NCBI GenBank assembly: GCA_018609195.1
Contig: JAHCSE010000004.1
Span: 8,474-72,473, forward strand
Length of the DNA stretch: 64,000 nt
Source of the DNA: Patescibacteria group bacterium
GTDB taxonomy: Bacteria; Patescibacteriota; Minisyncoccia; Minisyncoccales; RBG-13-36-15
Direction of reading: 5' to 3'
A model generated the notes under the pieces. That model was not told the origin of the DNA, searched no databases, and worked only from the letters and a program-made list of their open reading frames with translations. Positions 7,146 through 59,806 of this stretch are shown here, in pieces; within the stretch, counting starts at the first letter, position 1; every line of letters begins with the position of its first letter. The translations under genes and the position numbers were made by a program.

Positions 7146-7940
7146 ATGATTCTATTTTATTTCATTGTTTTTCCTTTCGGCTTGGCAGTAGGTTCTTTTT
7201 TGAATTCAATAATTTATCGCATCCAGACTGGCGAGGGTTTTTTATTTCAAAGATCCTATTGCCCCCATTGTAAAAAAATTCTCAGCTGGCAAGATTTAAT
7301 TCCCCTTTTGAGTTTTTTATTTTTAAAAGGAAAATGCAGCTATTGCCAAGAGAAAATCTCCTATCAGTATCCGTTAGTAGAGCTATCTACAGGGTTTTTA
7401 TTTGTCTTCACGGTTTATAAATTTTCTCCTTTAACCTTGGGAGATTTTTTAGCTATTAGTTATTGGCTATTAGCTATTAGCTTCTTAATTGTAATTTTTG
7501 TTTTTGATCTAAAATATTACATCATTCCAGATAAAATAATTTATCCAGCTATTTTTGTATCTGGTATCTGGTATCTGGTATCTGGTATTTTTTTTAACAT
7601 CTATACAAAATACGAGATACTAAATACGATATACGCTGCTTTCGGAGCCTCCACCTTTTTCTTATTTATTGTCTTGATCTCCCACGGAAAGTGGATGGGC
7701 TGGGGCGATCCTAAATTAGCTTTTTTTATGGGCCTGCTTCTTGGATTTCCAAATATTTTAACTGCCCTCTTTTTAGCTTTCTTTATCGGAGCTATAATAG
7801 GAATAGGATTGATAATTTTTGGAAAGAAAACCTTAAAGTCAGAGATACCTTTTGGCCCCTTTTTAGTGACCGGAACCCTTCTTTCTTTATTTTTTGGCGA
7901 GGAAATTCTAAACTTGTATTTAAAATTTTTTACAATTTAA
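7146..7940 (+). CDS. pilD: prepilin peptidase PilD (A24 family)
   Basis: 264 aa polytopic protein. N-terminal Cys pairs CPHCKK / CSYCQE. Aspartyl motifs FDLKYYIIPD and GWGDPKL. Confidence 0.85.
   Translation: MILFYFIVFPFGLAVGSFLNSIIYRIQTGEGFLFQRSYCPHCKKILSWQDLIPLLSFLFLKGKCSYCQEKISYQYPLVELSTGFLFVFTVYKFSPLTLGDFLAISYWLLAISFLIVIFVFDLKYYIIPDKIIYPAIFVSGIWYLVSGIFFNIYTKYEILNTIYAAFGASTFFLFIVLISHGKWMGWGDPKLAFFMGLLLGFPNILTALFLAFFIGAIIGIGLIIFGKKTLKSEIPFGPFLVTGTLLSLFFGEEILNLYLKFFTI
7557..7588 (+). repeat. heptanucleotide tandem repeat (GTATCTG)x4 plus partial unit, inside pilD
   Basis: Read directly: gtatctg gtatctg gtatctg gtatctg gtat. The unit length is not a multiple of 3. Confidence 0.9.
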
Positions 7941-7943
7941 AAA

Positions 7944-8492
7944 ATGGAAAAACAATATTCTAAAAAATCATTTACTATTATTGAACTAATCGTCGTTATA
8001 AGTATTATCATTATTATCTCAGGAATAGTTTTGGTTAATTATGGGGCAGGCCAAAAGCAACTTAATCTTCAAAGGTCAACTTCCAAATTAGCTCAGGATA
8101 TCAGAAGAGTCCAAGAAATGACAATGTCAGCGAAAGAATGTACTCATCCTACGGTATGCCCCGCAGGAGGGGTTCCTCCGGGAGGATACGGTATTTATTT
8201 TAACAAAGACGTAAAAGACAGTTATATTATTTATGCTGACATTAGTTCTCCGAATGAACAGCGGAATCCGGGAGGAGAAGAGGATATCGAAACTATTTCT
8301 TTGGGAAAAGAGGTGGAAATTGACTCCGTTACTCCCCCTAAAGCGAGTATAAATTTTAAGCCTCCTGATCCAATAGTAAGACTAAAAAATGAAGCCGGTA
8401 TTAATCAATCAAATGTAACAATAATTTTAAGAGCTGATTCCAACACTAAAACCATTCAAGTCAATAAAGTTGGCCGAATTGATATAGACTAA
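7944..8492 (+). CDS. minor pilin / pseudopilin (FimT/GspH-like position)
   Basis: 182 aa. N-terminal KSFTIIELIVVISIIIIISGIVL prepilin-type motif. Confidence 0.7.
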   Translation: MEKQYSKKSFTIIELIVVISIIIIISGIVLVNYGAGQKQLNLQRSTSKLAQDIRRVQEMTMSAKECTHPTVCPAGGVPPGGYGIYFNKDVKDSYIIYADISSPNEQRNPGGEEDIETISLGKEVEIDSVTPPKASINFKPPDPIVRLKNEAGINQSNVTIILRADSNTKTIQVNKVGRIDID

Positions 8493-8561
8493 AAATCATC
8501 TGAACATATAAACATGTAAACATCTAAACATGTTAAAATGCTAAAATGTTTAAATGTTAAA

Positions 8562-9056
8562 ATGAACAAAAAGGGCTTCACCCTTTTAGAAGTTATTGTC
8601 GCTATTTTTTTAGTTACCGTGGGGATTTCCGGTGTTTTTCTTTTAATTACCAGAACGATCGGCATAATATCCCTTTCTTTTTCCCAGCTTACAGCTGCTT
8701 ACTTAACCCAGGAAGGGATTGAAATTGTCAGAAACGTCAGAGATACAAATTGGTTAGATCCTCTCAATCCTTCTTGGGATGATGGGTTATCGGCCGGAAA
8801 TTGGGAGGCTGATTATACCACTCCGACTTTAAATGATACTTATGATGGTGATTTGTTAAATATTGATGGAGATGGTTTTTATAGTTATTCTCCTGGCACT
8901 CCAACTAAATTTAAAAGAAGAATCACTATTGTACCAGAAGATATAGATTTAGATGGAATAAACGATATTTTAAAGGTTACTGTTTTAGTTGAATGGCAAG
9001 AAAAAGGGAAAATCCATTCCCATACTGCCCAGGAAAATTTGTATAACTGGAAATAA
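8562..9056 (+). CDS. minor pilin (PilV-like)
   Basis: ORF track starts at 8538, but MNKKGFTLLEVIVAIFLVTVGISGVF begins at ATG 8562. The upstream codons lie in a word-repeat spacer. Confidence 0.7.
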   Translation: MNKKGFTLLEVIVAIFLVTVGISGVFLLITRTIGIISLSFSQLTAAYLTQEGIEIVRNVRDTNWLDPLNPSWDDGLSAGNWEADYTTPTLNDTYDGDLLNIDGDGFYSYSPGTPTKFKRRITIVPEDIDLDGINDILKVTVLVEWQEKGKIHSHTAQENLYNWK

Positions 9057-9083
9057 AATAATATTTAATTGTTAATAGTATAA

Positions 9084-9662
9084 ATGAATAAAAGCAAAGC
9101 TTTTACACTAATCGAAATGCTTGTTGCGGTAACCATTTTTTCCTTGGTTATTGGCTCAGCGAGCGGTCTTTTGATTTCAGCCATTAGGTCTCAGACTAAG
9201 GCTTTGGCCTCTCAGAAGATTTTGGACGAAACAAGTTTTGTAATGGAATATATGAGCAGAGCTTTAAGAATGGCGAAGAAGGAATTAAATTGTCCAGGTG
9301 TTGATTGTTGTCTTATTGATAATGGAAATGGTTATAATTACGAGAATCCAGGATTGGATACCACCAGAATAAAATTTATAAGATTTATAGGTACTCAAGA
9401 TGTCTGTCAAGAATTTCGCTTAAACAGCGTCAGTGATCAGTTAGAGGAATATAGAGATGGTATCTTTTTTGGAGAGTTAACTTCCGATGGGCTGGAAGTA
9501 TCTTCTCTCCAATTTAATCTTATAGGAGTAGCTCAACCTCCAACAGATGATCTTCAGCCGAGAGTCACTATCTCAATGAAAATAAAAAAGGCAGGAGTAG
9601 CAAAGCCAGAAATTAAAATACAGACCACCATTTCCCAGAGAAACTTGGATGTGCAACAATAA
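9084..9662 (+). CDS. minor pilin (PilW-like)
   Basis: 192 aa. N-terminal KAFTLIEMLVAVTIFSLVIGSASGLL. Confidence 0.7.
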   Translation: MNKSKAFTLIEMLVAVTIFSLVIGSASGLLISAIRSQTKALASQKILDETSFVMEYMSRALRMAKKELNCPGVDCCLIDNGNGYNYENPGLDTTRIKFIRFIGTQDVCQEFRLNSVSDQLEEYRDGIFFGELTSDGLEVSSLQFNLIGVAQPPTDDLQPRVTISMKIKKAGVAKPEIKIQTTISQRNLDVQQ

Positions 9663-9741: not shown

Positions 9742-10095
9742 ATGCAACGTGGTATTGCTCTCTATTTAGCTCTTATTGTTATGTTTATTTTACTTGGCAT
9801 TGGCTTGGGAATAAGTACTATTTTAATTGGTCAAATTAAGATAATTAGAGGAGTAGGTAATTCAGTCGTTGCTTTTTATGCTGCCGATACCGGAGTCGAA
9901 AGAGTTTTATATGCGATTCGAAAAGAAGGATATTGTTCTCCTCCTCCTTTATTACCCGTTCAACCTTTTATAGATGTTGCTTTAGGCAATGGTGCGACTT
10001 ATACAGTGACTATTACTGCTTGTAATGGCGCTACAACTATTGATTCAAAAGGAACCTATCAAGAAACTCGTCGAGCAATAGAGATTACCTACTAA
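9742..10095 (+). CDS. PilX-like minor pilin
   Basis: ORF track starts at 9682. The likely start is ATG 9742 (MQRGIALYLALIVMFILLGIGLGIST), because the upstream part is a palindromic spacer. Last gene of the minor-pilin block. Confidence 0.55.
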   Translation: MQRGIALYLALIVMFILLGIGLGISTILIGQIKIIRGVGNSVVAFYAADTGVERVLYAIRKEGYCSPPPLLPVQPFIDVALGNGATYTVTITACNGATTIDSKGTYQETRRAIEITY

Positions 10096-14526: not shown

Positions 14527-17379
14527 ATGAATAATAAAGAAGAATCAAAATATATTTCTCTTCAGGAAGCTACAAAATACTGTTCCTATTCTCAGGATTA
14601 TTTATCTTTGCTGGCGAGAACCGGAAAATTGAAGTCAGTAAAGATTGGCAGGAATTGGGTGACTACCAAAGAATGGATTGAGGAATATATAGAAAGAGTG
14701 AAAGAGTTTAATAATTATAATCGGTTACCCAAAAAGAATCTCATCAGGGTTGAAGTTAAATTCGAGGAAGAGGAAATCTCAGAAAGTCCGTCCCCATTAT
14801 CTGAGTCTTCAGAGGACACTTCACCTTTTCAAGAGTTGCCAAAAGTTAGACAACCAGAGCAAGCCCCCCTCCTTATTTTAGCTTTTGCCCTGGTTTTTGT
14901 TTTACTGATAGCTGCCGGAATTTTTGGTAAAGAGAATTTCAAAAATGCTTTTCAACAGATCGATCCTTATGTAACAGCAATTAATCAAGAAGTTGATGAA
15001 GGAATTGTCCAAGGATGGAAAGGGATTCAGAAAGGGGTTCAGGGGATTGGTGGAGCTGGAGATTTTGTTTTTGAAGGGGCAGCTAAATCTTTTGAAGAAA
15101 GTTTTGTTACGGTCTCTAGGGATGCTTATCAATTCTCCCGGGAAGCTGTTTCCATGTTTGGAGAAATTACGGTTCTCGGTTCAGTAGGGGCTAATCAATT
15201 AGCTGAGGTTTCTCAGGAAATTCCAAAATCAATTTTGGAATCGATAAAAAACATTGGCCAATCAATAGGCCAAGGAACAAAAAATATGGCCTCTGGTATT
15301 AGTTCTCGGCTCTCAGGTTTGGCTCAATTCGTCAGCCAGCTTTTCAAAAGAGAAACACTGGTTAAAGTAGAAAAAGAAGTAATACCCGAAGAGTTAGAAA
15401 AAGAAATTGCTAAATTGGCAGATGAGATTGGAAAATTAAAACTGAGAGGATTTCCAGAAAAAGGTCCTCAAGGTCCTCAAGGTTCGCCTGGACCTCCTGG
15501 TCCTCAAGGTCTCTCCGGGCCTCAGGGCCCCACTGGTCCTCAAGGTCCCTCGGGCCCTCCAGGACCCTCTGGGCCTCAAGGAGTGGCAACTCTAGCTGCA
15601 CGTTTTGCAAATTTAAGCACCAATACCGTTTCCATCGGAGGTAATTTTGATTCTCTCAACATAGGAAGAGGGAATCTTACCGTTGATTCAGCTGGAAGTC
15701 TTACTACCTCAGGTTCTCTTACTGTTTCAGGAACAATTACAGAAGGAGGAACCTCCCTAACCTCCAAATATATTGGTATTCCCTCAGGCTCTACTCAGGG
15801 AGATGTTCTCTATTACAGTGGGGCTGCTTGGGCAAGATTAGCAGCAGGGAGCTCTGGCCAATTTTTACAAACCCAAGGTTCCGGAGCTAATCCTGTTTGG
15901 GCAACAGTAACTTCTGGTTCTACTCTCTGGACAGACGGAGGCACTGTAACTTATCTAACCGCAATCTCTGATGATCTGGCCCTGGGAGGAACTGATTCCA
16001 CTGCTCCCTTCTTCATGGATGTTTCAACTGGGAGCCTGGCACTCACTGGTTCTCTCACCGGAACCGTCCTCAACTTAACTGGTCTCACCAACCAGATTGT
16101 TTTAGATTCAGACGGAACAAACACTGGAACCTTAACCATGGCTTCTCTTTCTGCTTCAAGAACCTGGACCTTACCTAATGCTACCGGCACTGTGATCACC
16201 GCAGGAAACCTCACTGATATCACTTCTGTTACCGGGTTAAACACCCAAAATGCCCTCCAACTTGGTCCCTTCGGTTCCTCAGCAGGAAACACAGGAGAGA
16301 TCAGGTTCTTAGAACTTGCTGCCAGTGGTACTAACTATGTAGGATTTAAAGCTCCTGATGCCATTACCACCAATGTAATTTGGACTCTTCCTGCAGCAGA
16401 TGGCACAGCAGATCAGGTCTTATCCACTAATAGTTCAGGAGTTCTCTCCTGGGCTACTGCCGGAGGTCTCTTTACTGATGGCGGAACCACCACCTATCTG
16501 ACCTCAACCACTGATGATTTAGCCCTTGGAGGCACAGATTCCACTGCTCCCTTCTTCATGGATGTTTCAACTGGGAATTTGACTCTCACAGGTGATCTTG
16601 CTGTCAACGGTGGGGATATTACTTCAACTGGCGCACTTACAATCACGCCTGGAGCTGGAACCAACTTCAATATTGCTCTTTCAACCACTGGAGATTTTGC
16701 CGTCAACACCAATCAACTCTTTGTTGATACCTCAACCGGCCGCGTCGGCATCGGGACGGCGAGTCCAGCCTTCAAACTTGATGTGTTAGGCAGTATCAGA
16801 GCCTCGGACGCCTTTCTGTTCTTCGACGGCTCCACTCAAGCTATGGCAAGCACTCCCAGTGGATTTTCCTGGCGTGTCACTACAGCTTCCTTCCTCCAGT
16901 TATTTAACGTAGCAGGAGAGGAAACAAATCCCCGAGGCGTTTTCTTCAAGCCTGACGGAACAAAGATGTATATTATAGGACTTATTGGTGATGATGTCAA
17001 TGAATATAACTTGTCAACTCCCTGGGATGTCTCAACTGCTTCGTTCCTCCAGTTATTTAGCGTATCAGGAGAGGAAACAGTCCCTACAGGCGTTTTCTTC
17101 AAGCCAGACGGAACAAAGATGTATGTTATAGGGTCTACTGGTGATGACGTCAATGAATATAACTTATCAACTCCCTGGGATGTCTTAACAGCTTCGTTCA
17201 ACCAGTTATTTAGCGTGGCAGGAGAGGAAACAGTCCCTACAGGCCTCTTCTTCAAGCCAGACGGAACAAAGATGTATGTTATAGGGCAAAGTGGTGTTGA
17301 TGTCAATGAATATAACTTATCAACTCCCTGGAATGTCTTAACAGCTTCGTTCCTCCAGTTATTTAGCGTATTAGGATAG
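14527..17379 (+). CDS. giant surface-fibre protein, N-terminal part (HTH, TM, collagen-like, tail-fibre-like repeats, 51-aa repeats); ends at in-frame TAG
   Basis: 950 codons. N-terminal excisionase-type HTH ([46 protein letters not shown]), TM helix [22 protein letters not shown], 13 G-X-Y triplets, repeated [16 protein letters not shown] blocks. Confidence 0.85.
15463..15579 (+). repeat. collagen-like G-X-Y tract (13 triplets)
   Basis: [39 protein letters not shown], read in the gene frame. Confidence 0.9.
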
Positions 17380-17634
17380 GAAATAGTCCCTACAGGCGTT
17401 TTCTTCAAGCCAGACGGAACAAAGATGTATGTTATAGGGACTGCTGGTGATGAGGTCAATGAATATAACTTATCAACTCCCTGGGATGTCTTAACTGCTT
17501 CGTTCAACCAGTTATTTAGCGTGGCAGGAGAGGACACAGCCCCTACAGGCGTTTTCTTCAAGCCAGACGGAACAAAGATGTATGTTATAGGAGATAATGA
17601 TGATGATGTCAATGAATATGACTTAGGCCTTATC
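16870..17634 (+). repeat. five tandem 153-nt (51-codon) repeats inside the giant gene
   Basis: Units start at 16870, 17023, 17176, 17329 and 17482. Consensus W[DN][43 protein letters not shown]. Confidence 0.9.
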
Positions 17635-19395
17635 ATAGAAGGCAACGTCGGCATTGGGACGACGGGGCCGGGGTCCAAATTAGATGTTACTACCAACTCT
17701 CTGGGCATTACCCAGACTAATACTTCTGGCCTGGCTCTGGTCAATACCACTGCTGCTGCAGCTGGGTTGCAGCAGATATCCCCAGCTCTAAGGTGGAGAG
17801 GGTTTGGCTGGAAAACCGGTGGTCCTAACCCTGCTAGTCAGTCAGTCGACTTTAGATCTTTCGTGAGGCCAATTCAAGGAGCAGCCGCTCCCACGGGTGG
17901 ATTAGATTTTCAAAGCAGTATTAATGGTGGAGCTTACAGTGACTTGTTGACGATTTTAAGCACGGGCAACGTCGGCATCGGGACGGCGAGTCCTATAAAA
18001 AAACTCTCAGTCGCCGGTAAATTTTATTCACACAAAGACGCTGATATCACAGCCAGAAATTACCTCACTGATAATTCCTGGGTCTCCAGAACTTCAGCCG
18101 CTGACAATAGTTGGTTTGCCATAACCTGGTCTCCGGAGCTTGGCCTGTTCGCCGCCGTAGCTGACTCCGGCACAGACAACCGGGTCATGACCTCTCCAGA
18201 CGGCATTACCTGGACAATCAGAACTTCAGCCGCTGACAATGATTGGCTTGGCATAACCTGGTCTCCGGAGCTTGGCCTGTTCGCCGCCGTAGCTGCCACT
18301 GGCACAGGCAACAGGGTCATGACCTCGGTCAGCTCAAAATTGTCGCCTATGGTGAGCGTAGTAGCTGCTACGGACGACCGCGAAACTTTGTGTATAGCTA
18401 TCGGTGGCGGTGTTGTTACTAGAGATGCCGCAGGCAATGACTGCGACATTTCCTCTGCACGCTTCAAATATAATATTGAGGAACTTGATATTAACGGCAT
18501 TGACATCGTGAATTCTTTTAAACCTTCGTCCTTTATTAAAAATTCTGATAAGACAAACAGAATACAATGGGGATTTATTGCTGAAAATATTGCGGTAAGC
18601 AACCCACACCTTGCTTTGTATGACGAAGATGGTCTTCCGTATTCAATATCAAAGTATGGAATTATGGCGGTACTCGCCAAATCCATTCAAGAAATCTCCC
18701 AGCGCATAGATCTAACAGAAGAAAGCTTGGCATTCTTACAGCCTGACAGCCAACAGCCAGAAGGAGATTCTTTACTTGATGGTTTTGTTCAAAAAATAAA
18801 ACAAGCCTTAGCTTCCCTGGGGCTCGTAATTGAAAATGGAATTTTACAGGTTCAGAAATTAGTCGCAGGTGTTATAGAGACCGAAAATTTGAAAGTGGGA
18901 AGCCCAGAGAAGCCAACTGGCGTTACTCTCTATGATGAGGTGAGTGGTCAGTCATATTGTATTAAGATACGAAACGGGCAGATGGTAAGTTATGAGGGAG
19001 AATGCCAAGCAGGAAACCCTTCTGACCAAGCACTAACTGAAGAGCCGCCGGTTGAACAATCACCAGTAGAGCCATCTTCTACCGAACCACCTCCCACTGA
19101 GCCCCCGGTAGAGCCATCTCCAGCTGAGGAACCTTCAGGAGAACAACCCCCCACTGAAGAGCCTACGATTGAAGAACCACCAGCTGGACAAGAACCTCTG
19201 GTTGAAGAACCGCCAATAGGGGAGCCTCCATTAGAAGAACCACTTGCTGGAGAATCACCACCTACTGAGGAGCCACCAATTGAGGAACCACCTCCTTTAG
19301 AAGAACCACCAGCTGAGGAGGAACCTCCAGCTGAGGAACCCATAGTTGAAGAACCAGTTGTTGAGGAACCTGTTCTGGAGGAGCCAGCTGAATAA
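17425..19395 (+). CDS. giant surface-fibre protein, C-terminal part (same frame as 14527..17379; frame open from 17380)
   Basis: 656 codons. Contains VGIGT..P..KL.V tail-fibre motifs, two BNR/Asp-box-containing repeats (SPDGITW), an S74-type intramolecular chaperone signature (SSARFKYNIEEL...WGFIAENI) and a P/E-rich tail. Confidence 0.8.
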   Translation: MYVIGTAGDEVNEYNLSTPWDVLTASFNQLFSVAGEDTAPTGVFFKPDGTKMYVIGDNDDDVNEYDLGLIIEGNVGIGTTGPGSKLDVTTNSLGITQTNTSGLALVNTTAAAAGLQQISPALRWRGFGWKTGGPNPASQSVDFRSFVRPIQGAAAPTGGLDFQSSINGGAYSDLLTILSTGNVGIGTASPIKKLSVAGKFYSHKDADITARNYLTDNSWVSRTSAADNSWFAITWSPELGLFAAVADSGTDNRVMTSPDGITWTIRTSAADNDWLGITWSPELGLFAAVAATGTGNRVMTSVSSKLSPMVSVVAATDDRETLCIAIGGGVVTRDAAGNDCDISSARFKYNIEELDINGIDIVNSFKPSSFIKNSDKTNRIQWGFIAENIAVSNPHLALYDEDGLPYSISKYGIMAVLAKSIQEISQRIDLTEESLAFLQPDSQQPEGDSLLDGFVQKIKQALASLGLVIENGILQVQKLVAGVIETENLKVGSPEKPTGVTLYDEVSGQSYCIKIRNGQMVSYEGECQAGNPSDQALTEEPPVEQSPVEPSSTEPPPTEPPVEPSPAEEPSGEQPPTEEPTIEEPPAGQEPLVEEPPIGEPPLEEPLAGESPPTEEPPIEEPPPLEEPPAEEEPPAEEPIVEEPVVEEPVLEEPAE

Positions 19396-52401: not shown

Positions 52402-54093
52402 ATGGAAATTACTGGAAAAATTTTAAAAAAAATTTTCGTTGATTCAGGTTTAATTAACCAAAAAAAATTTTCTTTAGCAAAAAAAATAGCGAAGGAGCGA
52501 AAAGAGTCTCTGACAAACGTAATTTTAGATCAAAGATTAATTTCTGATGAAGAGTTAGGCCAGTTAATTGCAGATTATCTCGGCTTCCCTTTTGTAAATT
52601 TGAGAAAAATAGAAATCAATCGCGAAATTTTAACTATCTTACCCGAAATTGTGGCTAAAAAACAGGAAATTATTATCTTTGATAGAAACCAAAAAGGAAT
52701 AAAAGTAGCATTTCGCCAACCCGAAAATTTAGAGATTAGAGAATTTATTGAAAGGAAAACAGGGGATAAGGTAATCCCTTACTATGCCACTAAAAGAGAT
52801 ATTCAAGAATCCTTAAAATATTACCGCAAAGAGATAAAAACGGAATTTGAAGAAATTATTAAAAAGTCCCTTGAAGAACTCAAAAAAACCCATAAAAGAC
52901 CTACGGATGAACCCTTGCCGATAATTAAGGCTATGGATTTAATTTTACATTATGGCTACGACAATAAAGCTTCTGACATCCATATTGAACCTTATAAGAA
53001 CGAAACCGTGTTGAGATATCGGATCGATGGAGTTTTACACGATGTATTAACTTTACCTAAAATTCTTCATGATTTTTTAGTTTCGAGGATTAAGATTCTA
53101 TCTAAACTTCGAATTGATATTCATGATGCCGCCCAAGATGGCCATTTTTCATTTCAAGTTCCCTCAGAGAAAGTCGATGTAAGGGTTTCTGTTGTTCCTA
53201 TTGAAGAGGGAGAAAAAGTAGTGTTGAGGCTTCTTTCAGAAAGAGCAAGAAGGTTTGAGTTGAAAGATTTAGGCTTGGAATTAAATGAACTAAAAATTAT
53301 TAGGAAAAATATAAAAAAACCTTGGGGGATGATTTTAGTTTCAGGGCCTACTGGTTGCGGTAAAACAACTACGTTATATGCCATTTTGAAAATTTTGAAT
53401 GTGAGAGAAGTTAATATTTGTACTATTGAAGATCCAATTGAATATGATATTGAAGGAATAAGTCAGATTCAGGCCAATCCTAAAACAGGATTGAATTTTT
53501 CCAAAGGCCTTAGAGCAATAATTCGCCAGGACCCCGATATTATTATGGTGGGTGAAATCAGAGATGAGGAAACTGCTGCATTAGCCGTAAATTCGGCAAT
53601 GACCGGGCACCAAGTTTTATCTACCTTTCACGCTACCGATTCTTCCACCACTTTACCCAGGCTTTTAGATATGAAAATTGAACCTTTTTTACTTTCAACC
53701 TCCTTAATCTTAGTTATTGCCCAAAGACTCGTGAGAAAAATTTGTCCAAAGTGTATTGAAAGTTATGAAATTTCTTTTGCCAGGTTATCTCAGTTTTTAG
53801 GTAAAGATTTGGCCGTAAAATTTCCCAGAACAAAAGAAAATAAAATTCGCCTTTTCCGGGGAAAGGGATGCCCGCTTTGCCAGAAAACAGGATATTTGGG
53901 AAGAACAGGAATTTTCGAGGCTTTAGAAATAAAAGACCCGATTAAAAAGCTAATTATGGAAAAAGCTAATGCTTCTCAGATCAGGGCCAAAACTCAAAGG
54001 CTGGGAATGAGAACAATGGTTGAAGATGGTCTCAATAAAGTTGAAAGAGGGATTACTGCTCTGGAAGAGGTTTTAAGAGCAGCCCAAGAATAA
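52402..54093 (+). CDS. second PilB/GspE-family assembly ATPase
   Basis: 563 aa. Walker A GPTGCGKTT, DPDIIMVGEIRD, MTGHQVLSTFHA, CPKC...CPLC. Confidence 0.9.
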   Translation: MEITGKILKKIFVDSGLINQKKFSLAKKIAKERKESLTNVILDQRLISDEELGQLIADYLGFPFVNLRKIEINREILTILPEIVAKKQEIIIFDRNQKGIKVAFRQPENLEIREFIERKTGDKVIPYYATKRDIQESLKYYRKEIKTEFEEIIKKSLEELKKTHKRPTDEPLPIIKAMDLILHYGYDNKASDIHIEPYKNETVLRYRIDGVLHDVLTLPKILHDFLVSRIKILSKLRIDIHDAAQDGHFSFQVPSEKVDVRVSVVPIEEGEKVVLRLLSERARRFELKDLGLELNELKIIRKNIKKPWGMILVSGPTGCGKTTTLYAILKILNVREVNICTIEDPIEYDIEGISQIQANPKTGLNFSKGLRAIIRQDPDIIMVGEIRDEETAALAVNSAMTGHQVLSTFHATDSSTTLPRLLDMKIEPFLLSTSLILVIAQRLVRKICPKCIESYEISFARLSQFLGKDLAVKFPRTKENKIRLFRGKGCPLCQKTGYLGRTGIFEALEIKDPIKKLIMEKANASQIRAKTQRLGMRTMVEDGLNKVERGITALEEVLRAAQE

Positions 54094-54123: not shown

Positions 54124-55179
54124 ATGGGGGTTTCTTTAAAAGAAAAAATGTTTTTTGCTGAACATTTATCCTTAATGATTAAAGGAGGGATTCCAATATC
54201 TGAGGCTTTGGAAATTTTAAAGTCCGAAGCTAAATCTAGAGGACTGAAAAGGGCTTTAAACGATATTTTAAAAAGAGTTTTGGAAGGGGAGAGATTAGAG
54301 AAGAGTTTTGAAAAGCATCCTCGAATTTTTGATAGATTTTTCAGAAATATAGTTCGGGTAGGAGAAGAATCAGGAACCTTAGAAGAGAATTTACGATATT
54401 TGGCTTCGCAAATTCAGAAGGACTATGAGTTAAAAAGAAAAGTGGTAGGGGCTTTACTCTATCCTCTCTTAGTCCTTGTTTTAGCTACTGTCATTATTTC
54501 GGTAGTCACCTTTTTTGTTATACCAAAGATAACTCCCCTTTTTCAGGCTCTGCCGCAAGCGGAGGCGGGGCTACCCTTCGCTACGGAAATTTTAATTTCC
54601 CTTTCCTCTTTTTTAAAACAGTTTTGGTTTTTAATAATCGCAGCTTTTATTTTCTTTGTCGTAATTTTTAAAATTTTGCAGAAAATAAGATTTATTAAAT
54701 TTTATTTTGATAAAATAAGCCTTTCTTTACCGTTTTTTGGTCAAATGTATAAAAATCTCGCGCTATCCAGGTTTTCTCGAAATCTATATACACTTTTGGG
54801 GAGTGGAATGCCAATTTTGGAAGCTCTGGAAATTTGCGCAGATTCGCTTCCAAATGAAATTCACAAAAGGAATGTAATGAAAGTGAGAGCAGGAGTAGAA
54901 AGGGGAGAAAAGATAAGTTCTGGTCTCAGAAAAAATCCCCAAAATTTCCCTCCGATTTTCTCAGAAATGGTCTTGGTAGGAGAGAAAACAGGTTCCCTAG
55001 AAGAAAGCCTTCTGTATCTCGCTGAATTTTATGAAAAAGAATTTGATACTACAATAAAAAATCTCTCGGGGTTGTTGGAACCTGTATTATTAATATTCGT
55101 TGGAATTTTTGTTGCCTTTGTGGCTTTCGCTATCATCACCCCAATTTATCAATTTACCTCTGGCCTCCGTATTCGTTAA
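54124..55179 (+). CDS. second PilC/GspF-family platform protein
   Basis: 351 aa. Duplicated GspF-type domains and 3 TM helices. Shorter N-terminus than the locus-1 PilC. Confidence 0.85.
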   Translation: MGVSLKEKMFFAEHLSLMIKGGIPISEALEILKSEAKSRGLKRALNDILKRVLEGERLEKSFEKHPRIFDRFFRNIVRVGEESGTLEENLRYLASQIQKDYELKRKVVGALLYPLLVLVLATVIISVVTFFVIPKITPLFQALPQAEAGLPFATEILISLSSFLKQFWFLIIAAFIFFVVIFKILQKIRFIKFYFDKISLSLPFFGQMYKNLALSRFSRNLYTLLGSGMPILEALEICADSLPNEIHKRNVMKVRAGVERGEKISSGLRKNPQNFPPIFSEMVLVGEKTGSLEESLLYLAEFYEKEFDTTIKNLSGLLEPVLLIFVGIFVAFVAFAIITPIYQFTSGLRIR

Positions 55180-55202: not shown

Positions 55203-55637
55203 ATGGAAAAAGGGTTTACTTTAATCGAAGTCTTACTTGTAGTGGGAGTTTTGGCGATTTTACTTACTCTAGCTATACCCGTTACCATAGATTTTTACAA
55301 AAGCCAGCAACTCGATACTCATACTCAAGGAATTATTCAGACTCTCAGAAGAGCTCAACTAAAGGCAATGTCAATAGAAGAAGATTCAAGTTTTGGAGTT
55401 TTTTTGACGAATGATAACTATATCCTTTTTAGAGGAAATTCTTTTGCTACTCGTGATGCGGCTTTTGATGAAATTTTTGATTTACCAGTGGTTATCACAG
55501 TTCAAGATTCCCCAAAAGACGTTGTTTTTTCAAAATTTGAGGGAAAGCCGAATGCCATAGGTAGCATTATACTAAGTAACGATGGCTTAATTCAAGTGAT
55601 AAATATTAATGAGATAGGGAGAATAAATTTAGAATAA
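55203..55637 (+). CDS. minor pilin / pseudopilin (GspH/FimT-like)
   Basis: 144 aa. MEKGFTLIEVLLVVGVLAILLTLAIP. Confidence 0.7.
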   Translation: MEKGFTLIEVLLVVGVLAILLTLAIPVTIDFYKSQQLDTHTQGIIQTLRRAQLKAMSIEEDSSFGVFLTNDNYILFRGNSFATRDAAFDEIFDLPVVITVQDSPKDVVFSKFEGKPNAIGSIILSNDGLIQVININEIGRINLE

Positions 55638-55639
55638 CA

Positions 55640-56485
55640 ATGAATAGGGGGCAGTCTTTAATTGAATTATTGGTTGCGATTGGAATTTTTGTCATAGTAG
55701 TGAGCGTTTTGATTTTTTTAATTCTTAATAGCTATGTCACCGGCCGCTTGGCTTCAGAAATAACTATAGCCAATTTTTTTGCCGAAGAGGGATTGGAGGC
55801 AGCAAGATCAATTAGAGATAGAAATTTCGCTGGCCTCACAAATGGAAATCATGGGTTAATAATTTCTGGAGGAAATTGGCAATTTTCTGGCCAATCTGGG
55901 GTAATTGATGGAAAATTTACCAGAGCTATCAAGGTAGACGAGATTGATCCTAATCGAAAAAAAATAACCTCTCAGGTCACTTGGCAATTTACTGAAGCAA
56001 GGCCCCAGGAAATTACATTGGTTACCTATCTAACCAATTGGCAAATAGGTTTAGAAATCCGAAAACCCACTGTCTTTACTGATATAGCGAAAGCTACCAC
56101 TGATCCTACTAATGCCTTTGATTACCCTGACGGAGTCACCTTTGCGACTACTGACTACGGAGCAATTTCCGATCCTTCGATCACCTTCCATACCTGGGAA
56201 ACACCAACTCAGACTTATAATAGTTTAGTTCTCAAATATCGTTATCATGTAGATTCAGCTACTGATGATACCTATGCTGTTGCCTATTCAACAGATTCAG
56301 GTTTGAATTGGGTTGACTTAATTTCCCCAACTTCAGTTGGAGCTAGGGATACCACTATTTTAGTTGATCTTTCTCCTTCTCAAGATTTATCCTTCCTGCA
56401 AGTAAAAATCTATACAACAAAGATGAAGAAGCCTGATAAGAGAAACCTTTATACGAGAGATATCTGGACTGAAGGCAATTTTTAA
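55640..56485 (+). CDS. minor pilin with extra C-terminal domain (shared with next gene)
   Basis: 281 aa. NRGQSLIELLVAIGIFVIVVSVLIF. A C-terminal region of about 140 aa is homologous to the C-terminus of 56491..57441. Confidence 0.65.
   Translation: MNRGQSLIELLVAIGIFVIVVSVLIFLILNSYVTGRLASEITIANFFAEEGLEAARSIRDRNFAGLTNGNHGLIISGGNWQFSGQSGVIDGKFTRAIKVDEIDPNRKKITSQVTWQFTEARPQEITLVTYLTNWQIGLEIRKPTVFTDIAKATTDPTNAFDYPDGVTFATTDYGAISDPSITFHTWETPTQTYNSLVLKYRYHVDSATDDTYAVAYSTDSGLNWVDLISPTSVGARDTTILVDLSPSQDLSFLQVKIYTTKMKKPDKRNLYTRDIWTEGNF
56180..56336 (+). repeat. 157-nt near-identical segment, copy 1 (pairs with 57136-57292)
   Basis: atcaccttccata...ccccaacttcag aligns with only a handful of mismatches to the neighbouring gene, while the flanks are much more diverged. 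Confidence 0.85.
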
Positions 56486-56490
56486 TTTTT

Positions 56491-57441
56491 ATGAAGGGAT
56501 TCACCTTGGTTGAATTTATAATTTATATTACCATTTTAACGACAATTTTGGTTTCAATAACTGGATTTTTATGGCTCGTTGTTTTAGGCAATATTAAAGA
56601 GACTTCCTACCAAGAAATTCAGCAAAATGGTCGTTTTGCCATGACAAAAATAACTCAGGAAATAAAAAAAGCCACAGGGGTAAATCACCCTCTTCCTGGA
56701 AATCCCCCTTCTGATTCTCTTTCCCTATTTATAGCCGATCCTAATTTGAATCCAACTATATTTGATGTCGTTGATGGAAAATTAAGAATTACTCAAGGAA
56801 CTAATACTCCTTTTGAGCTAACTTCTGATCAGGTAATAGTGAGCAATCTCCAATTTACCAATCTTTCTTATTCTGATACTCCAGGAATAATTCGAATAGA
56901 AATGACTGTCGATCATGTCAATCCTGGCAATAGAGGGGAATATCAGGCTTCAATTGATTTAACTTCAAGTATATCTTTAGTTCCAGGAGGAGCAGTTACT
57001 CCTCCTTTTGAAATCCTGAGGCCAACTGCCTTTAATGATGTAGCGAGAAGAACTACTAATCCAGAATTAGCCTTCGATGAACCTAATGGAACTACTTTTG
57101 CCACTACTCAATACGGAGGTAAAGCCGACCCTTCTATCACCTTCCATACTTGGGAAACACCAACTCAGACTTATAATAGTTTAGTTCTCAAATATCGTTA
57201 TCATGCAGATTCAGCTACTGATGATACCTATGCTGTTGCCTATTCAACAGATTCAGGTTTAAATTGGGTTGACTTAGTTTCCCCAACTTCAGCGGGAGTA
57301 TCAGATACGACTGTTTCTGCTATCCTTTCTCTTGCTCAGGACTTATCTCAACTCCGAGTCAAAATCCATACTCGCCAGACCAAAGGTCCAGATAACAAAA
57401 ATCTTTATACCAGAGATATTTGGACAGAGGGCACCTTCTAA
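56491..57441 (+). CDS. minor pilin with extra C-terminal domain
   Basis: 316 aa. MKGFTLVEFIIYITILTTILVSITGF. C-terminal domain DPSITFHTWETPTQTYNSLVLKYRYH.DSATDDTYAVAYSTDSGLNWVDL. Confidence 0.65.
   Translation: MKGFTLVEFIIYITILTTILVSITGFLWLVVLGNIKETSYQEIQQNGRFAMTKITQEIKKATGVNHPLPGNPPSDSLSLFIADPNLNPTIFDVVDGKLRITQGTNTPFELTSDQVIVSNLQFTNLSYSDTPGIIRIEMTVDHVNPGNRGEYQASIDLTSSISLVPGGAVTPPFEILRPTAFNDVARRTTNPELAFDEPNGTTFATTQYGGKADPSITFHTWETPTQTYNSLVLKYRYHADSATDDTYAVAYSTDSGLNWVDLVSPTSAGVSDTTVSAILSLAQDLSQLRVKIHTRQTKGPDNKNLYTRDIWTEGTF
57136..57292 (+). repeat. 157-nt near-identical segment, copy 2
   Basis: See 56180-56336. Confidence 0.85.
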
Positions 57442-57458
57442 TAAATGAAAAATTTAAA

Positions 57459-57926
57459 ATGAAAAATGAAAAATTAAAATCCTTTGGCCCTCAGTCTTTC
57501 AGATTCAGACTTCAGAAAGGTCTTACCCATCCAAATTTTGCGAAGCAAAACTCGGATGGGTTTATTGCCCTAATAACTATTTTAATAATTTTGGGTGCGG
57601 TTTTGTTAATTAGTTTGGGAATTTCTCAGCGTTCCTTTGGTGAAATTCAGATGAGTTTACAAAAATCACAGTCCTCCCAGGCATTTTATTTAGCCAATCT
57701 TTGTGCGGAAGATGCTTTAATGAAATTGAAAGAAGATAGTAATTATTTAGGGAATGAGACTATTACTATTGGAGAGGAATCTTGTCAGATTTTACCAATT
57801 GAAGGCCAATGGACAGTTAAAGTTTCAGCCAATTTTCAAAATCAAATAAGAAAAATAAAAATCGTTATCAGCCAAGTTAATCCAAAAATGATTATTGGTT
57901 CTTGGCAAGAGGTACCTGATTTTTAA
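57459..57926 (+). CDS. PilX-like protein with repeat-encoded N-terminal extension (start uncertain)
   Basis: Hydrophobic segment GFIALITILIILGAVLLISLGIS. The only in-frame starts (TTG 57420, ATG 57459) lie upstream of a word-repeat and of the 37-nt palindrome at 57525-57561. Confidence 0.45.
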   Translation: MKNEKLKSFGPQSFRFRLQKGLTHPNFAKQNSDGFIALITILIILGAVLLISLGISQRSFGEIQMSLQKSQSSQAFYLANLCAEDALMKLKEDSNYLGNETITIGEESCQILPIEGQWTVKVSANFQNQIRKIKIVISQVNPKMIIGSWQEVPDF

Positions 57927-57928
57927 AA

Positions 57929-59017
57929 ATGTTTAATTTTTTTAAAAAACCAACTTTTGGATTAGATATTTCAGATTACTCTATTGAGATAATTTCTTTG
58001 GAAGGAACGGTTGAAAAACCTAGACTTTCGGCTTTGGGAAGAGAAATCTTAGAGCCAGGGATTGTTGAGGATGGTAAGATTCTTGAAAAGGAGAAGCTGG
58101 AAGTTATTCTCAGGGCCTTATTAGAAAAACTCAAATTTGGTAAAATCAAGACAAAGAAATTAATTTTTGCTCTGCCTGAGTCAAAAACTTTTCTTCATTT
58201 TTTTGAGTTGCCCGAAGTTTTGGAAAAAGAAAGAATTGAGAAAGAAATCAAATTACAGGCTATGCACACTTTCCCTTTTCCCTTGAAAGAGCTCTATTTT
58301 GATTTTAAAGTGGGAGACAAAGAAGTTCTTTTAGTAGCTGCCCAAAAAGATATAGTTGATGATTATTTGGAAGTATTTAAAAATGTAGAAATCCAACCAA
58401 TAGCCCTGGAAATTGAATCAATAAGTTTGGCTCGATCTCTCATCGGAAATCAGAAGGAAACTATTTTAATTGCTGATATCGGTGCTCGAACAACCAATTT
58501 TAGCCTTTTTGACCAAAATCGTCTCAGGCTTAGTATTTCAATTAATATTGCTGGAGATAGATTTAACCAGGCCTTAATGGAAAAATCAAATATTTCCTTC
58601 CAAGAGGCTGAAAATCTTAAAAAAGAAATTGGCCTTGATCCAGAGAAAAAAGAGGGAAAGGTTTTTTTAATCTTACAGAAAGAGATTCAGGAGATAATAG
58701 CCGAAATTAAAAAAATTGCGGATTATTTTCAAAATAAAACTGGGAAAAAGATTGAAAAAGTAATTTTGGCTGGGGGGTCAGCTATCCTTCATCATCTCCC
58801 GGAATATTTGGCTGAAAATTTGGAAAAACCAGTTTCAATTGGCGACCCCTGGGAAAAAATAAATATCGATATTTTAAAAGAGAAAGAATATTTTGAGAAA
58901 GCTTTAGAAATTAACCCAATTTTATATGCCACAGTCATTGGTTCTACCCTGCGGGGATTAACAAAAGAACCAGAAAAAGCGGGAATAAATTTGTTGCCAA
59001 GAGAGAGAAAATTTTGA
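57929..59017 (+). CDS. pilM: type IV pilus assembly protein PilM (actin-like ATPase fold)
   Basis: 362 aa. GLDISDYSIEII, IADIGARTTNFSLF, ILAGGSA phosphate and adenosine motifs of the PilM/FtsA-like family. Confidence 0.85.
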   Translation: MFNFFKKPTFGLDISDYSIEIISLEGTVEKPRLSALGREILEPGIVEDGKILEKEKLEVILRALLEKLKFGKIKTKKLIFALPESKTFLHFFELPEVLEKERIEKEIKLQAMHTFPFPLKELYFDFKVGDKEVLLVAAQKDIVDDYLEVFKNVEIQPIALEIESISLARSLIGNQKETILIADIGARTTNFSLFDQNRLRLSISINIAGDRFNQALMEKSNISFQEAENLKKEIGLDPEKKEGKVFLILQKEIQEIIAEIKKIADYFQNKTGKKIEKVILAGGSAILHHLPEYLAENLEKPVSIGDPWEKINIDILKEKEYFEKALEINPILYATVIGSTLRGLTKEPEKAGINLLPRERKF

Positions 59018-59223: not shown

Positions 59224-59712
59224 ATGAAAATTTCCAGTAAAAAGAAAGGCTTCACCTTGATCGAACTTTTGATTGTCATTGGAATTATAGCAGTCTTAGT
59301 TGCAATAGCTATTGTAGCAATTAACCCTGCTCGACAATTTGCCAAAACCAACAATGCCGTACGCTTTGCAGATGTTAATACTACCTTGAATGCTGTTTCC
59401 CAGAATGTTGTGGACGGGAGAGGAATCTGGACTTGTCCTGAGGTCCTTCCTACAACAGCTGAACCAATAAAAGCAGATGATGCAGATCCACTTACTGACG
59501 AAGCCGATATTTGTGATTGTCTTGTCCCAACATATATTGGCTCCATGCCTTCAGATCCCACCGCTGGTGTTGCACCAACTACGCCGCCTTGTACTGGCTA
59601 TGATACTGGTTACACTATTTCCCAAGATGCCACTACGGGCCGAGTGACTATCGTTGCTCCCAGTGCTCAGTCAGAAAACGGAGCTGCTCCAATAATTTCA
59701 GTTACCCGCTAA
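59224..59712 (+). CDS. type IV (major) pilin, locus 2
   Basis: 162 aa. KKGFTLIELLIVIGIIAVLVAIAIVAINP. Confidence 0.85.
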   Translation: MKISSKKKGFTLIELLIVIGIIAVLVAIAIVAINPARQFAKTNNAVRFADVNTTLNAVSQNVVDGRGIWTCPEVLPTTAEPIKADDADPLTDEADICDCLVPTYIGSMPSDPTAGVAPTTPPCTGYDTGYTISQDATTGRVTIVAPSAQSENGAAPIISVTR

Positions 59713-59781: not shown

Positions 59782-59806
59782 AAGCGGCGGCTTTGCCGCC
59801 GCTTTT
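59782..59806 (+). terminator. rho-independent terminator after pilin
   Basis: AAGCGGCGG-ctttg-CCGCCGCTT followed by TTTT. Confidence 0.8.

Follow-up and report, generated by a model that had tools for sequence, protein, structure and literature searches.

Two modular minor pilins have been described in the type IV pili (T4P) of Streptococcus sanguinis: PilB, which possesses a von Willebrand factor A (vWA) module, and PilC, which possesses a concanavalin A (ConA)-like lectin module (PMC9934059, PMC8179133). In models, PilB and PilC cap the pilus tip "like open wings", and PilC binds glycans through its lectin module (PMC9934059). In complexes of H-I-J-K minor pilins, the I, J and K subunits are located at the filament tip (PMC9934059). 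In the Patescibacteria, PilX1 of the Saccharibacteria member TM7x possesses a C-terminal beta-jelly-roll, which resembles a carbohydrate-binding module (CBM) and was missed by CD-Search, and host binding can be inhibited by sugar (PMC11623550). Here, we describe two adjacent minor-pilin genes (55640..56485 and 56491..57441) in a 64,000-nucleotide stretch of contig JAHCSE010000004.1 from a Patescibacteria group bacterium. This whole stretch is called the window. The two genes encode homologous C-terminal modules, part of which is nearly identical at the DNA level.

The window pilins resemble those of S. sanguinis in their make-up, with a class III signal, a pilin moiety and a C-terminal module, and in that two modular minor pilins belong to one pilus gene string. 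In S. sanguinis, however, two different folds are carried by a simplified three-pilin complex, whereas the window encodes one domain twice, on two subunits (I- and J-like) of an H-I-J-K set. Furthermore, the window modules are homogenised by conversion and resemble CBMs and reelin subrepeats rather than ConA, and they are known from sequence and models. With TM7x PilX1, the window pilins share a Patescibacteria T4P locus and a C-terminal CBM- or lectin-like jelly-roll that is missed by domain databases; PilX1 has been proposed to be a tip adhesin for host glycans. Compared by description, however, PilX1 is a single subunit for which no PilD signal was predicted, and neither paired modules nor gene conversion was reported for it (PMC11623550).

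The locus also resembles the pilE/pilS system of Neisseria, since in both cases a pilin gene is altered in part by non-reciprocal recombination. In Neisseria, a single expressed major pilin receives sequence from many silent cassettes, and diversity is created. In the window, in contrast, the exchange takes place between two minor-pilin genes that both look expressed, and each homogenises the other. No silent donor cassette or third module copy was detected in the 64-kb window by a six-frame HMM search and blastn. Modular pilins are already known, and a pair of same-domain modules homogenised by conversion is a variation on that theme.

On balance, we consider it probable that the I- and J-like modular minor pilins form a bivalent lectin-like adhesin at the pilus tip with their twin CBM-like modules, and that the modules are homogenised by gene conversion. 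The pilus would thereby probably get a two-headed sticky tip.

An earlier note on this DNA had described two genes with different pilin-like N-terminal halves and a homologous C-terminal region of about 140 amino acids. The gene coordinates given there are correct, and the description was borne out. The C-terminal 142 amino acids (56057-56482 and 57013-57438) align without a gap at an offset of 956 nt, with 73% amino acid identity and 78% nucleotide identity. The N-terminal halves are unrelated past the class III signal and alpha1N helix: the BLASTP comparison gave E=1, and hhalign aligned only the first 30 columns.

The gene at 55640..56485 (plus strand) encodes an I-like (PilV/GspI-like) modular minor pilin, which consists of a pilin moiety (55640-56056) and the jelly-roll module (56057-56482; module-profile match, E = 1.3e-55). 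The class III motif is RG/QSLIELLVA, and the N_methyl score is 22.1 bits (cut-off, 21.2). The gene at 56491..57441 (plus strand) encodes a J-like (PilW/GspJ/ComGF-like) modular minor pilin with a pilin moiety (56491-57012) and the same kind of module (57013-57438; E = 1.5e-58). Its N_methyl score of 17.2 bits is under the cut-off, and the motif KG/FTLVEFIIY is readable directly. Both proteins have the elements of a class III signal, namely a short leader ending in Gly, about 20 hydrophobic residues and Glu at +5.

The two subunits had been called PilV/PilW-like in the earlier note. This label is reasonable, given that the genes belong to four consecutive pilin genes in H-I-J-K order beside machinery genes, that the last of these lacks Glu5, and that weak matches were obtained to GspI (E = 0.005) and PilV (E = 0.007) for the I-like protein and to ComGF (E = 9e-4) for the J-like protein; it is limited in that no profile reached its curated cut-off. 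The same H-I-J-K gene order is found in the loci L001 (Saccharibacteria metagenome-assembled genome CAZDPT010000004), L005 (JGI 3300045950 Ga0484001_0000457), L006 and L010. From these matches and gene orders, we infer the I- and J-like assignment of the two modular pilins. Orthologous pilins occur both with the module (L006_H) and without it (L006_W, L010_W and the window H-like pilin). The L006 orthologue of the window H-like pilin (P0003) thus bears the module that its window counterpart lacks.

The product of 57007-57438 was modelled by AlphaFold2 (AF2) with a 56-sequence alignment. The C-terminal 144-residue segment models alone as an all-beta structure with a pLDDT of 96.9 and a pTM of 0.90, as is characteristic of a modular pilin. 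The single-sequence AF2 model of the whole 316-amino-acid J-like protein had a pLDDT of 39 and was unusable. The best Foldseek matches were CBM61 (2xom), CBM16, CBM4, reelin repeats, MAM and discoidin-like domains (best E, 5.6e-4), and the Foldseek probability was 1.00 for CBM61 (2xom), CBM16, CBM4 and reelin. In the viral structure library, the matches were to CBM-like domains in minor tail proteins and tail fibres of phages. The model shows a beta-jelly-roll of the CBM/galactose-binding-domain-like type.

In the curated libraries, no Pfam model reached its threshold and no NCBIfam match was found on the module. The best Pfam score was that of F5_F8_type_C (PF00754), 23.1 bits against a cut-off of 28.2, and 3 of the 56 members matched this model at E<=0.01. 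Reelin_subrepeat-B (PF21471) matched 11 of the 56 members at E<=0.01 (best E, 1.1e-5), all under the gathering threshold. A hairpin with the sequence S-x-D-x-G-x-x-W is the Asp-box (BNR) consensus of sialidases and reelin. The module possesses this Asp-box as Y-S-T-D-S-G-L-N-W at model residues 79-87, and its conservation in the family is 96% for Y79, 80% for G84 and 80% for W87. The PDB profile matches to reelin and sialidases centre on the Asp-box, which explains these sequence matches. In addition, the conserved acidic residues D24, D73, D129 and D137 may mark a structural metal site.

The module therefore belongs to the same predicted fold class as CBM61, CBM16, CBM4, reelin subrepeat B and F5-8 type C domains, and shares the Asp-box hairpin with reelin subrepeats and sialidases. 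In contrast to a member of these families, it reaches TM scores of 0.5-0.55 and identities of 10-18%, its Pfam scores are under the thresholds, and no sugar-binding residues are assignable. The earlier note had regarded the domain as novel. This holds for the sequence family, which is uncharacterised and matches no curated Pfam or NCBIfam model at threshold, but not for the fold, which is a common CBM-type jelly-roll; moreover, the family comprises about 202 clusters, most of them non-pilin. Remote homology searches and structure prediction thus matched a well-known adhesin fold in part.

Relatives of the module were collected by scanning 1.84 billion cluster representatives (clusters at 50% identity) exhaustively with HMMER. 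The scan gave 202 relatives at E<=1e-3, 93 of them at E<=1e-10, and it alone revealed the family; a word-indexed protein search gave 1 match for the single sequence as query and 6 for the profile. The labels of the relatives are Saccharibacteria, Patescibacteria group and Paceibacterales. Architectures were counted for the best 150 of the 202 relatives, about 10 of which are pilin fusions. The pilin fusions and the closest non-pilin relatives are encoded in Patescibacteria-type T4P loci.

The survey of other T4P loci, which the earlier note had suggested, located the module on H-like pilins (P0003), I-like pilins (P0005, P0006, P0015, P0025 and P0089), J-like pilins (P0001, P0004, P0053 and P0153) or a separate secreted protein. 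Among the syntenic loci, it is present on H and I in L006, on I only in L010, and on I and J in the window and L005. In L001, L002 and L003, it is carried by a separate protein, which has a signal peptide and whose gene lies among those of the minor pilins. These placements indicate that the module is an exchangeable accessory of the minor-pilin set. Other family members match PHROG virion and minor-tail families, and by their sequences the module family appears to be used in phage baseplate or tail-fibre regions as well. One relative, P0021 (316 amino acids), consists of two tandem module copies and nothing else; the domain thus also occurs as an internal repeat.

How the two modules would work can be outlined as follows. 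Each modular pilin is a normal pilin moiety with a 142-residue jelly-roll, including the Asp-box, grafted at its C-terminus. The I and J subunits would be adjacent in the priming complex that ends at the pilus tip, so that the pilus would display two module copies side by side, and the C-terminal modules would flank the K cap. The module pair would most likely be a bivalent lectin-like adhesin for glycans on the surface of the partner cell. The tip location and the glycan binding or adhesion are suggested by analogy: on the precedents of S. sanguinis and TM7x, the window pair is read as twin lectin-like tip modules for attachment to partner cells. The earlier suggestion of a pilus-tip module is plausible in this light, since it fits the published modular pilins.

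Several points weigh against a bivalent tip adhesin. The I and J classes were assigned from weak profile matches and synteny, with no class profile at its curated cut-off, and PDB profile searches with both pilin moieties gave only the generic pilin alpha1N helix (residues 1-31) and no I or J structures. The likeness to CBMs is confined to the level of the fold, and jelly-rolls have many functions besides sugar binding. The homogenisation is either selected for matched heads or a neutral consequence of direct repeats that lie close together; identity to L005 is 68-70% for the pilin moieties and 60-66% for the module, so that both diverge at a similar pace. It also counts here that the domain is N-terminal in most relatives and occurs near a phage baseplate gene, because this makes a docking role possible.

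According to this rival explanation, which we regard as possible but clearly less probable than an adhesin, the module is a docking or assembly domain that holds other tip components, for example same-domain proteins, or pairs I with J. In phage and giant surface proteins, attachment to the particle or the cell would then be through the module end. Of the 150 best representatives, 112 have the domain at the mature N-terminus: it directly follows a signal peptide in about 61, in proteins ranging from about 200 amino acids to 3,887-amino-acid giants, and it directly follows the initiator Met, with no signal peptide, in about 51. In the non-pilin proteins, the start E-[IV]-[LRK]-[RK]-P-T always forms the first mature residues. 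P0027 (L013:6047-8077, Logan SRR25553176_80139) has no signal peptide and carries the domain at residues 4-152, with the lectin-like domain Laminin_G_3 further towards the C-terminus; its gene is downstream of Baseplate_J and adjoins an N6/N4 methyltransferase. In many tail fibres, the N-terminal end attaches to the particle and not to the receptor. However, the window module ends the polypeptide, so that nothing lies beyond it to dock, and the 64 kb encode no further copy as a partner. The L001 module-bearing protein has the module at its N-terminus and a possible pilin link at its C-terminal domain, which would put the module at the free end. Moreover, the closest folds are overwhelmingly sugar-binding modules.

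The L001 locus shows a further peculiarity. Its I- and J-like pilins end in VVQSHYRWRNDDGG[QE] (7810-7860 and 9990-10037). These tails share about 48 nt of near-identical DNA, and the sequence upstream of them is unrelated. The module-bearing protein of 509 amino acids (7869-9398, P0002) is encoded between the two pilins, and its C-terminal domain starts with "...PPATWKAPEDT". Its homologue P0157 starts with HYRWRNDNGSEAAATWKQAEDT; the strand missing from P0002 is present on the pilins. Judging from these sequences, the P0002 strand on the L001 pilins could serve in donor-strand docking. One homologue supports this idea, namely P0157 beginning with HYRWRNDNGSEAAATW, and the downstream pilin of L016, which lacks such a tail, speaks against it.

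The DNA of the two modules was then compared in the window. The tract at 56180..56336 in the I-like gene and that at 57136..57292 in the J-like gene (both plus strand) are the same at 153 of 157 nt, with the 4 mismatches at 56194, 56250, 56305 and 56321, whereas the flanks of the tract are 67-68% identical between the two copies. The near-identity and the diverged flanks are thus as the earlier note had given them. By the secondary structure mapped from the AF2 model, the tract encodes the predicted strands beta4-beta7, including the Asp-box YSTDSGLNW. The synonymous divergence (dS, Nei-Gojobori) was 0.11 in the tract, compared with 0.74 (5') and 1.60 (3') in the flanks. Where both copies encode the same amino acid, the codons were identical in 48 of 51 cases in the tract and in 31 of 53 cases in the flanks (Fisher p=1.9e-5). 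When codon columns were permuted, a stretch of at least 157 nt with at most 4 mismatches was obtained in 0 of 100,000 permutations; the longest was 110 nt.

We also considered whether the tract is the most conserved part of the family or whether the flanks are hypervariable loops. The mean column entropy was 2.22 in the tract and 2.32 and 2.16 in the flanks (54 members). Since these values are similar, both ideas were dropped, and constraint on the protein does not account for the near-identity.

Comparison with L005 gave incongruent results for the tract and the flank. In the tract, the identity is 96% between the two window copies and 70-71% between these and the L005 copies. In the 3' flank, the corresponding values are 67% and 71-73%. 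In the flanks, each window copy is as close or closer to the copy of another genome than to the neighbouring copy. This incongruence indicates a non-reciprocal exchange superposed on an older duplication. Gene conversion between the two modules is therefore strongly supported as the cause of the tract identity. The recent recombination proposed in the earlier note is confirmed in this form by the drop in dS, the permutations and the incongruence, and it proved to be more general, as it recurs in other lineages. As for the mechanism, the two modules, 956 nt apart in direct orientation, exchange sequence by non-reciprocal homologous recombination. A recent event in the window genome homogenised 157 nt (beta4-beta7), and the extent in relatives ranges from none to the whole domain.

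L005 is syntenic with the window (GroEL - kinase - regulator - PilB - PilC - pilins - PilM - pilin - LemA - M48). In its I- and J-like genes, L005:5520-5944 and L005:6512-6936 are 100% identical over 425 nt, and the identity ends exactly at the first and last codons of the domain. In L012 (JGI 3300028897 Ga0309836_1001452), comparison of L012:2-310 with L012:791-1099 showed a 143-nt tract and a tract of about 95 nt, both 100% identical, around a divergent patch of about 62 nt. This patch encodes the segment after W-x-D-L, which is where the window tract starts diverging at its 3' edge. In L004, at least 135 nt are 100% identical between the module copies. The H/I pair of L006, which served as a control, showed 71% amino acid identity and no recent tract, with a longest exact run of 22 nt. 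Within each genome, the two modules are mutual closest relatives, whichever pilin bears them. These results show that concerted evolution of the two modules recurs in several lineages.

In L012, the J-like protein P0153 lacks the first 43 or so amino acids of the module (about 57 amino acids including the linker, compared with P0001). Since the L012 contig ends exactly at the repeat, this shortening is either a real deletion or a misjoin at the repeat.

The near-identity might instead have arisen if the domain was recently duplicated in tandem onto the second pilin and the copies then diverged in the ordinary way, but we hold this to be very unlikely. The identical 425-nt pair of L005, taken alone, fits a very recent domain duplication as well as a conversion of the whole domain, and the module has moved between pilin genes in evolution (on H in L006; on J in the window and L005). 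A duplication, however, predicts uniform divergence, whereas the window shows a tract of 97.5% identity within flanks of about 67% and flank dS values of 0.74-1.6, and the identical tracts of L012 are broken by the divergent patch. Furthermore, the J-fused architecture is common to the window, L005, P0001, L004 and L012, which indicates that the fusion is old relative to the tracts. For the window, the duplication is already contradicted.

Least probable of all is that the 157-nt identity reflects either selection at the nucleotide level (an RNA or regulatory element, or extreme codon constraint) or an artefact of assembly: although the tract folds somewhat better than shuffled sequences (z = -2.3; 3 of 200 shuffles as good) and contains a promoter-like match at 57150-57177, promoter-like sites occur at the frequency of shuffled sequences, the Rfam search of the window gave two tRNAs and nothing else, no antisense open reading frame (ORF) of at least 60 amino acids was found, the tract shares only about 70% DNA identity with orthologous loci and the extent of the identical stretches varies among L005, L012 and the window, so that no conserved nucleotide element exists, and an assembly artefact is excluded because L011, an independent metagenome assembly, is 100% identical to the window across 6,846 nt and both window proteins occur on five contigs, one of them of 750 kb.

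The conversion and the exchangeable placement can be joined in one scheme, which we put forward tentatively and consider doubtful as a whole. In this scheme, the conversion-matched I and J modules would form the bivalent head that decides which partner an episymbiotic Patescibacterium grips. The module would be an exchangeable tip cargo, either fused to one of H, I and J or borne by a separate protein, and shared with phage baseplate-region proteins. The separate protein of L001 may then dock by borrowing the beta-strand SHYRWRNDDGG of the C-termini of both pilins.

The two modular pilin genes are part of a gene string on the plus strand at 52.4-59.7 kb. Its first gene (52402..54093) encodes a PilB-type assembly ATPase; the same protein in L011 and L005 carries MshEN and T2SSE. 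The following ORF at 54124..55179 encodes a PilC-type platform protein (T2SSF in the identical locus L011). The gene at 55203..55637 encodes an H-like (GspH/ComGD/FimU-like) minor pilin without the extra module; N_methyl matched above the cut-off (23.5 bits), and ComGD (E = 1e-9) and GspH (E = 1e-6) matched under theirs. Downstream of the modular pilins, 57459..57926 encodes a K-like (PilX/GspK-like) minor pilin without Glu5 (G/FIALI), called as a 155-amino-acid gene product in L011, with weak matches to GspK (E = 0.026) and PilX_N (E = 0.28). A mechanical ORF for this pilin starts from a TTG and overlaps the end of the J-like gene (57420-57458), whereas the L011 call uses the ATG at 57459; the ATG is the more likely start. 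PilM is encoded at 57929..59017 (PilM_2, E = 2e-43; TIGR01175, 160.8 bits, above the cut-off), and a probable major pilin of 162 amino acids at 59224..59712 (N_methyl, 34.2 bits), with a terminator-like hairpin 3' of it at 59784-59799. The locus is best explained as a T4P gene string of the Patescibacteria (candidate phyla radiation, CPR) type with PilB, PilC, four core minor pilins H-I-J-K, PilM and a major pilin.

Two other regions of the window were noted. About 50 kb upstream of the pilus locus, 1106-2836 encodes a second PilB-type ATPase (T2SSE, E = 8e-121, and MshEN), which points to another type IV filament system or to a paralogous motor. The G+C content of 14527-19395 is 0.43-0.47, against about 0.36 elsewhere in the window. 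This region encodes a 950-amino-acid protein with collagen-like repeats and a 656-amino-acid Peptidase_S74 (endosialidase chaperone) protein with an extensin-like tail, which may be a fibrous surface pair or a phage-derived pair.

A large part of bacterial diversity belongs to the Patescibacteria (CPR), and the cultivated ones live attached to other cells. T4P are their best-supported attachment device; to our knowledge, the pilus-tip component that recognises the host is still largely unknown in this group. The window locus offers concrete candidates for CPR host recognition, in the form of a compact 142-residue, confidently modelled module outside the curated libraries. This module is grafted on different core minor pilins depending on the lineage, and its family is also found in giant surface proteins and phage baseplate-region proteins. 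It is small enough for direct tests with recombinant protein. The repeated homogenisation is a clean natural case of concerted evolution acting on a protein module within an operon, and its pattern reveals where in the module the two copies can differ freely. If the two heads are indeed matched by conversion, concerted evolution would let both switch specificity together.

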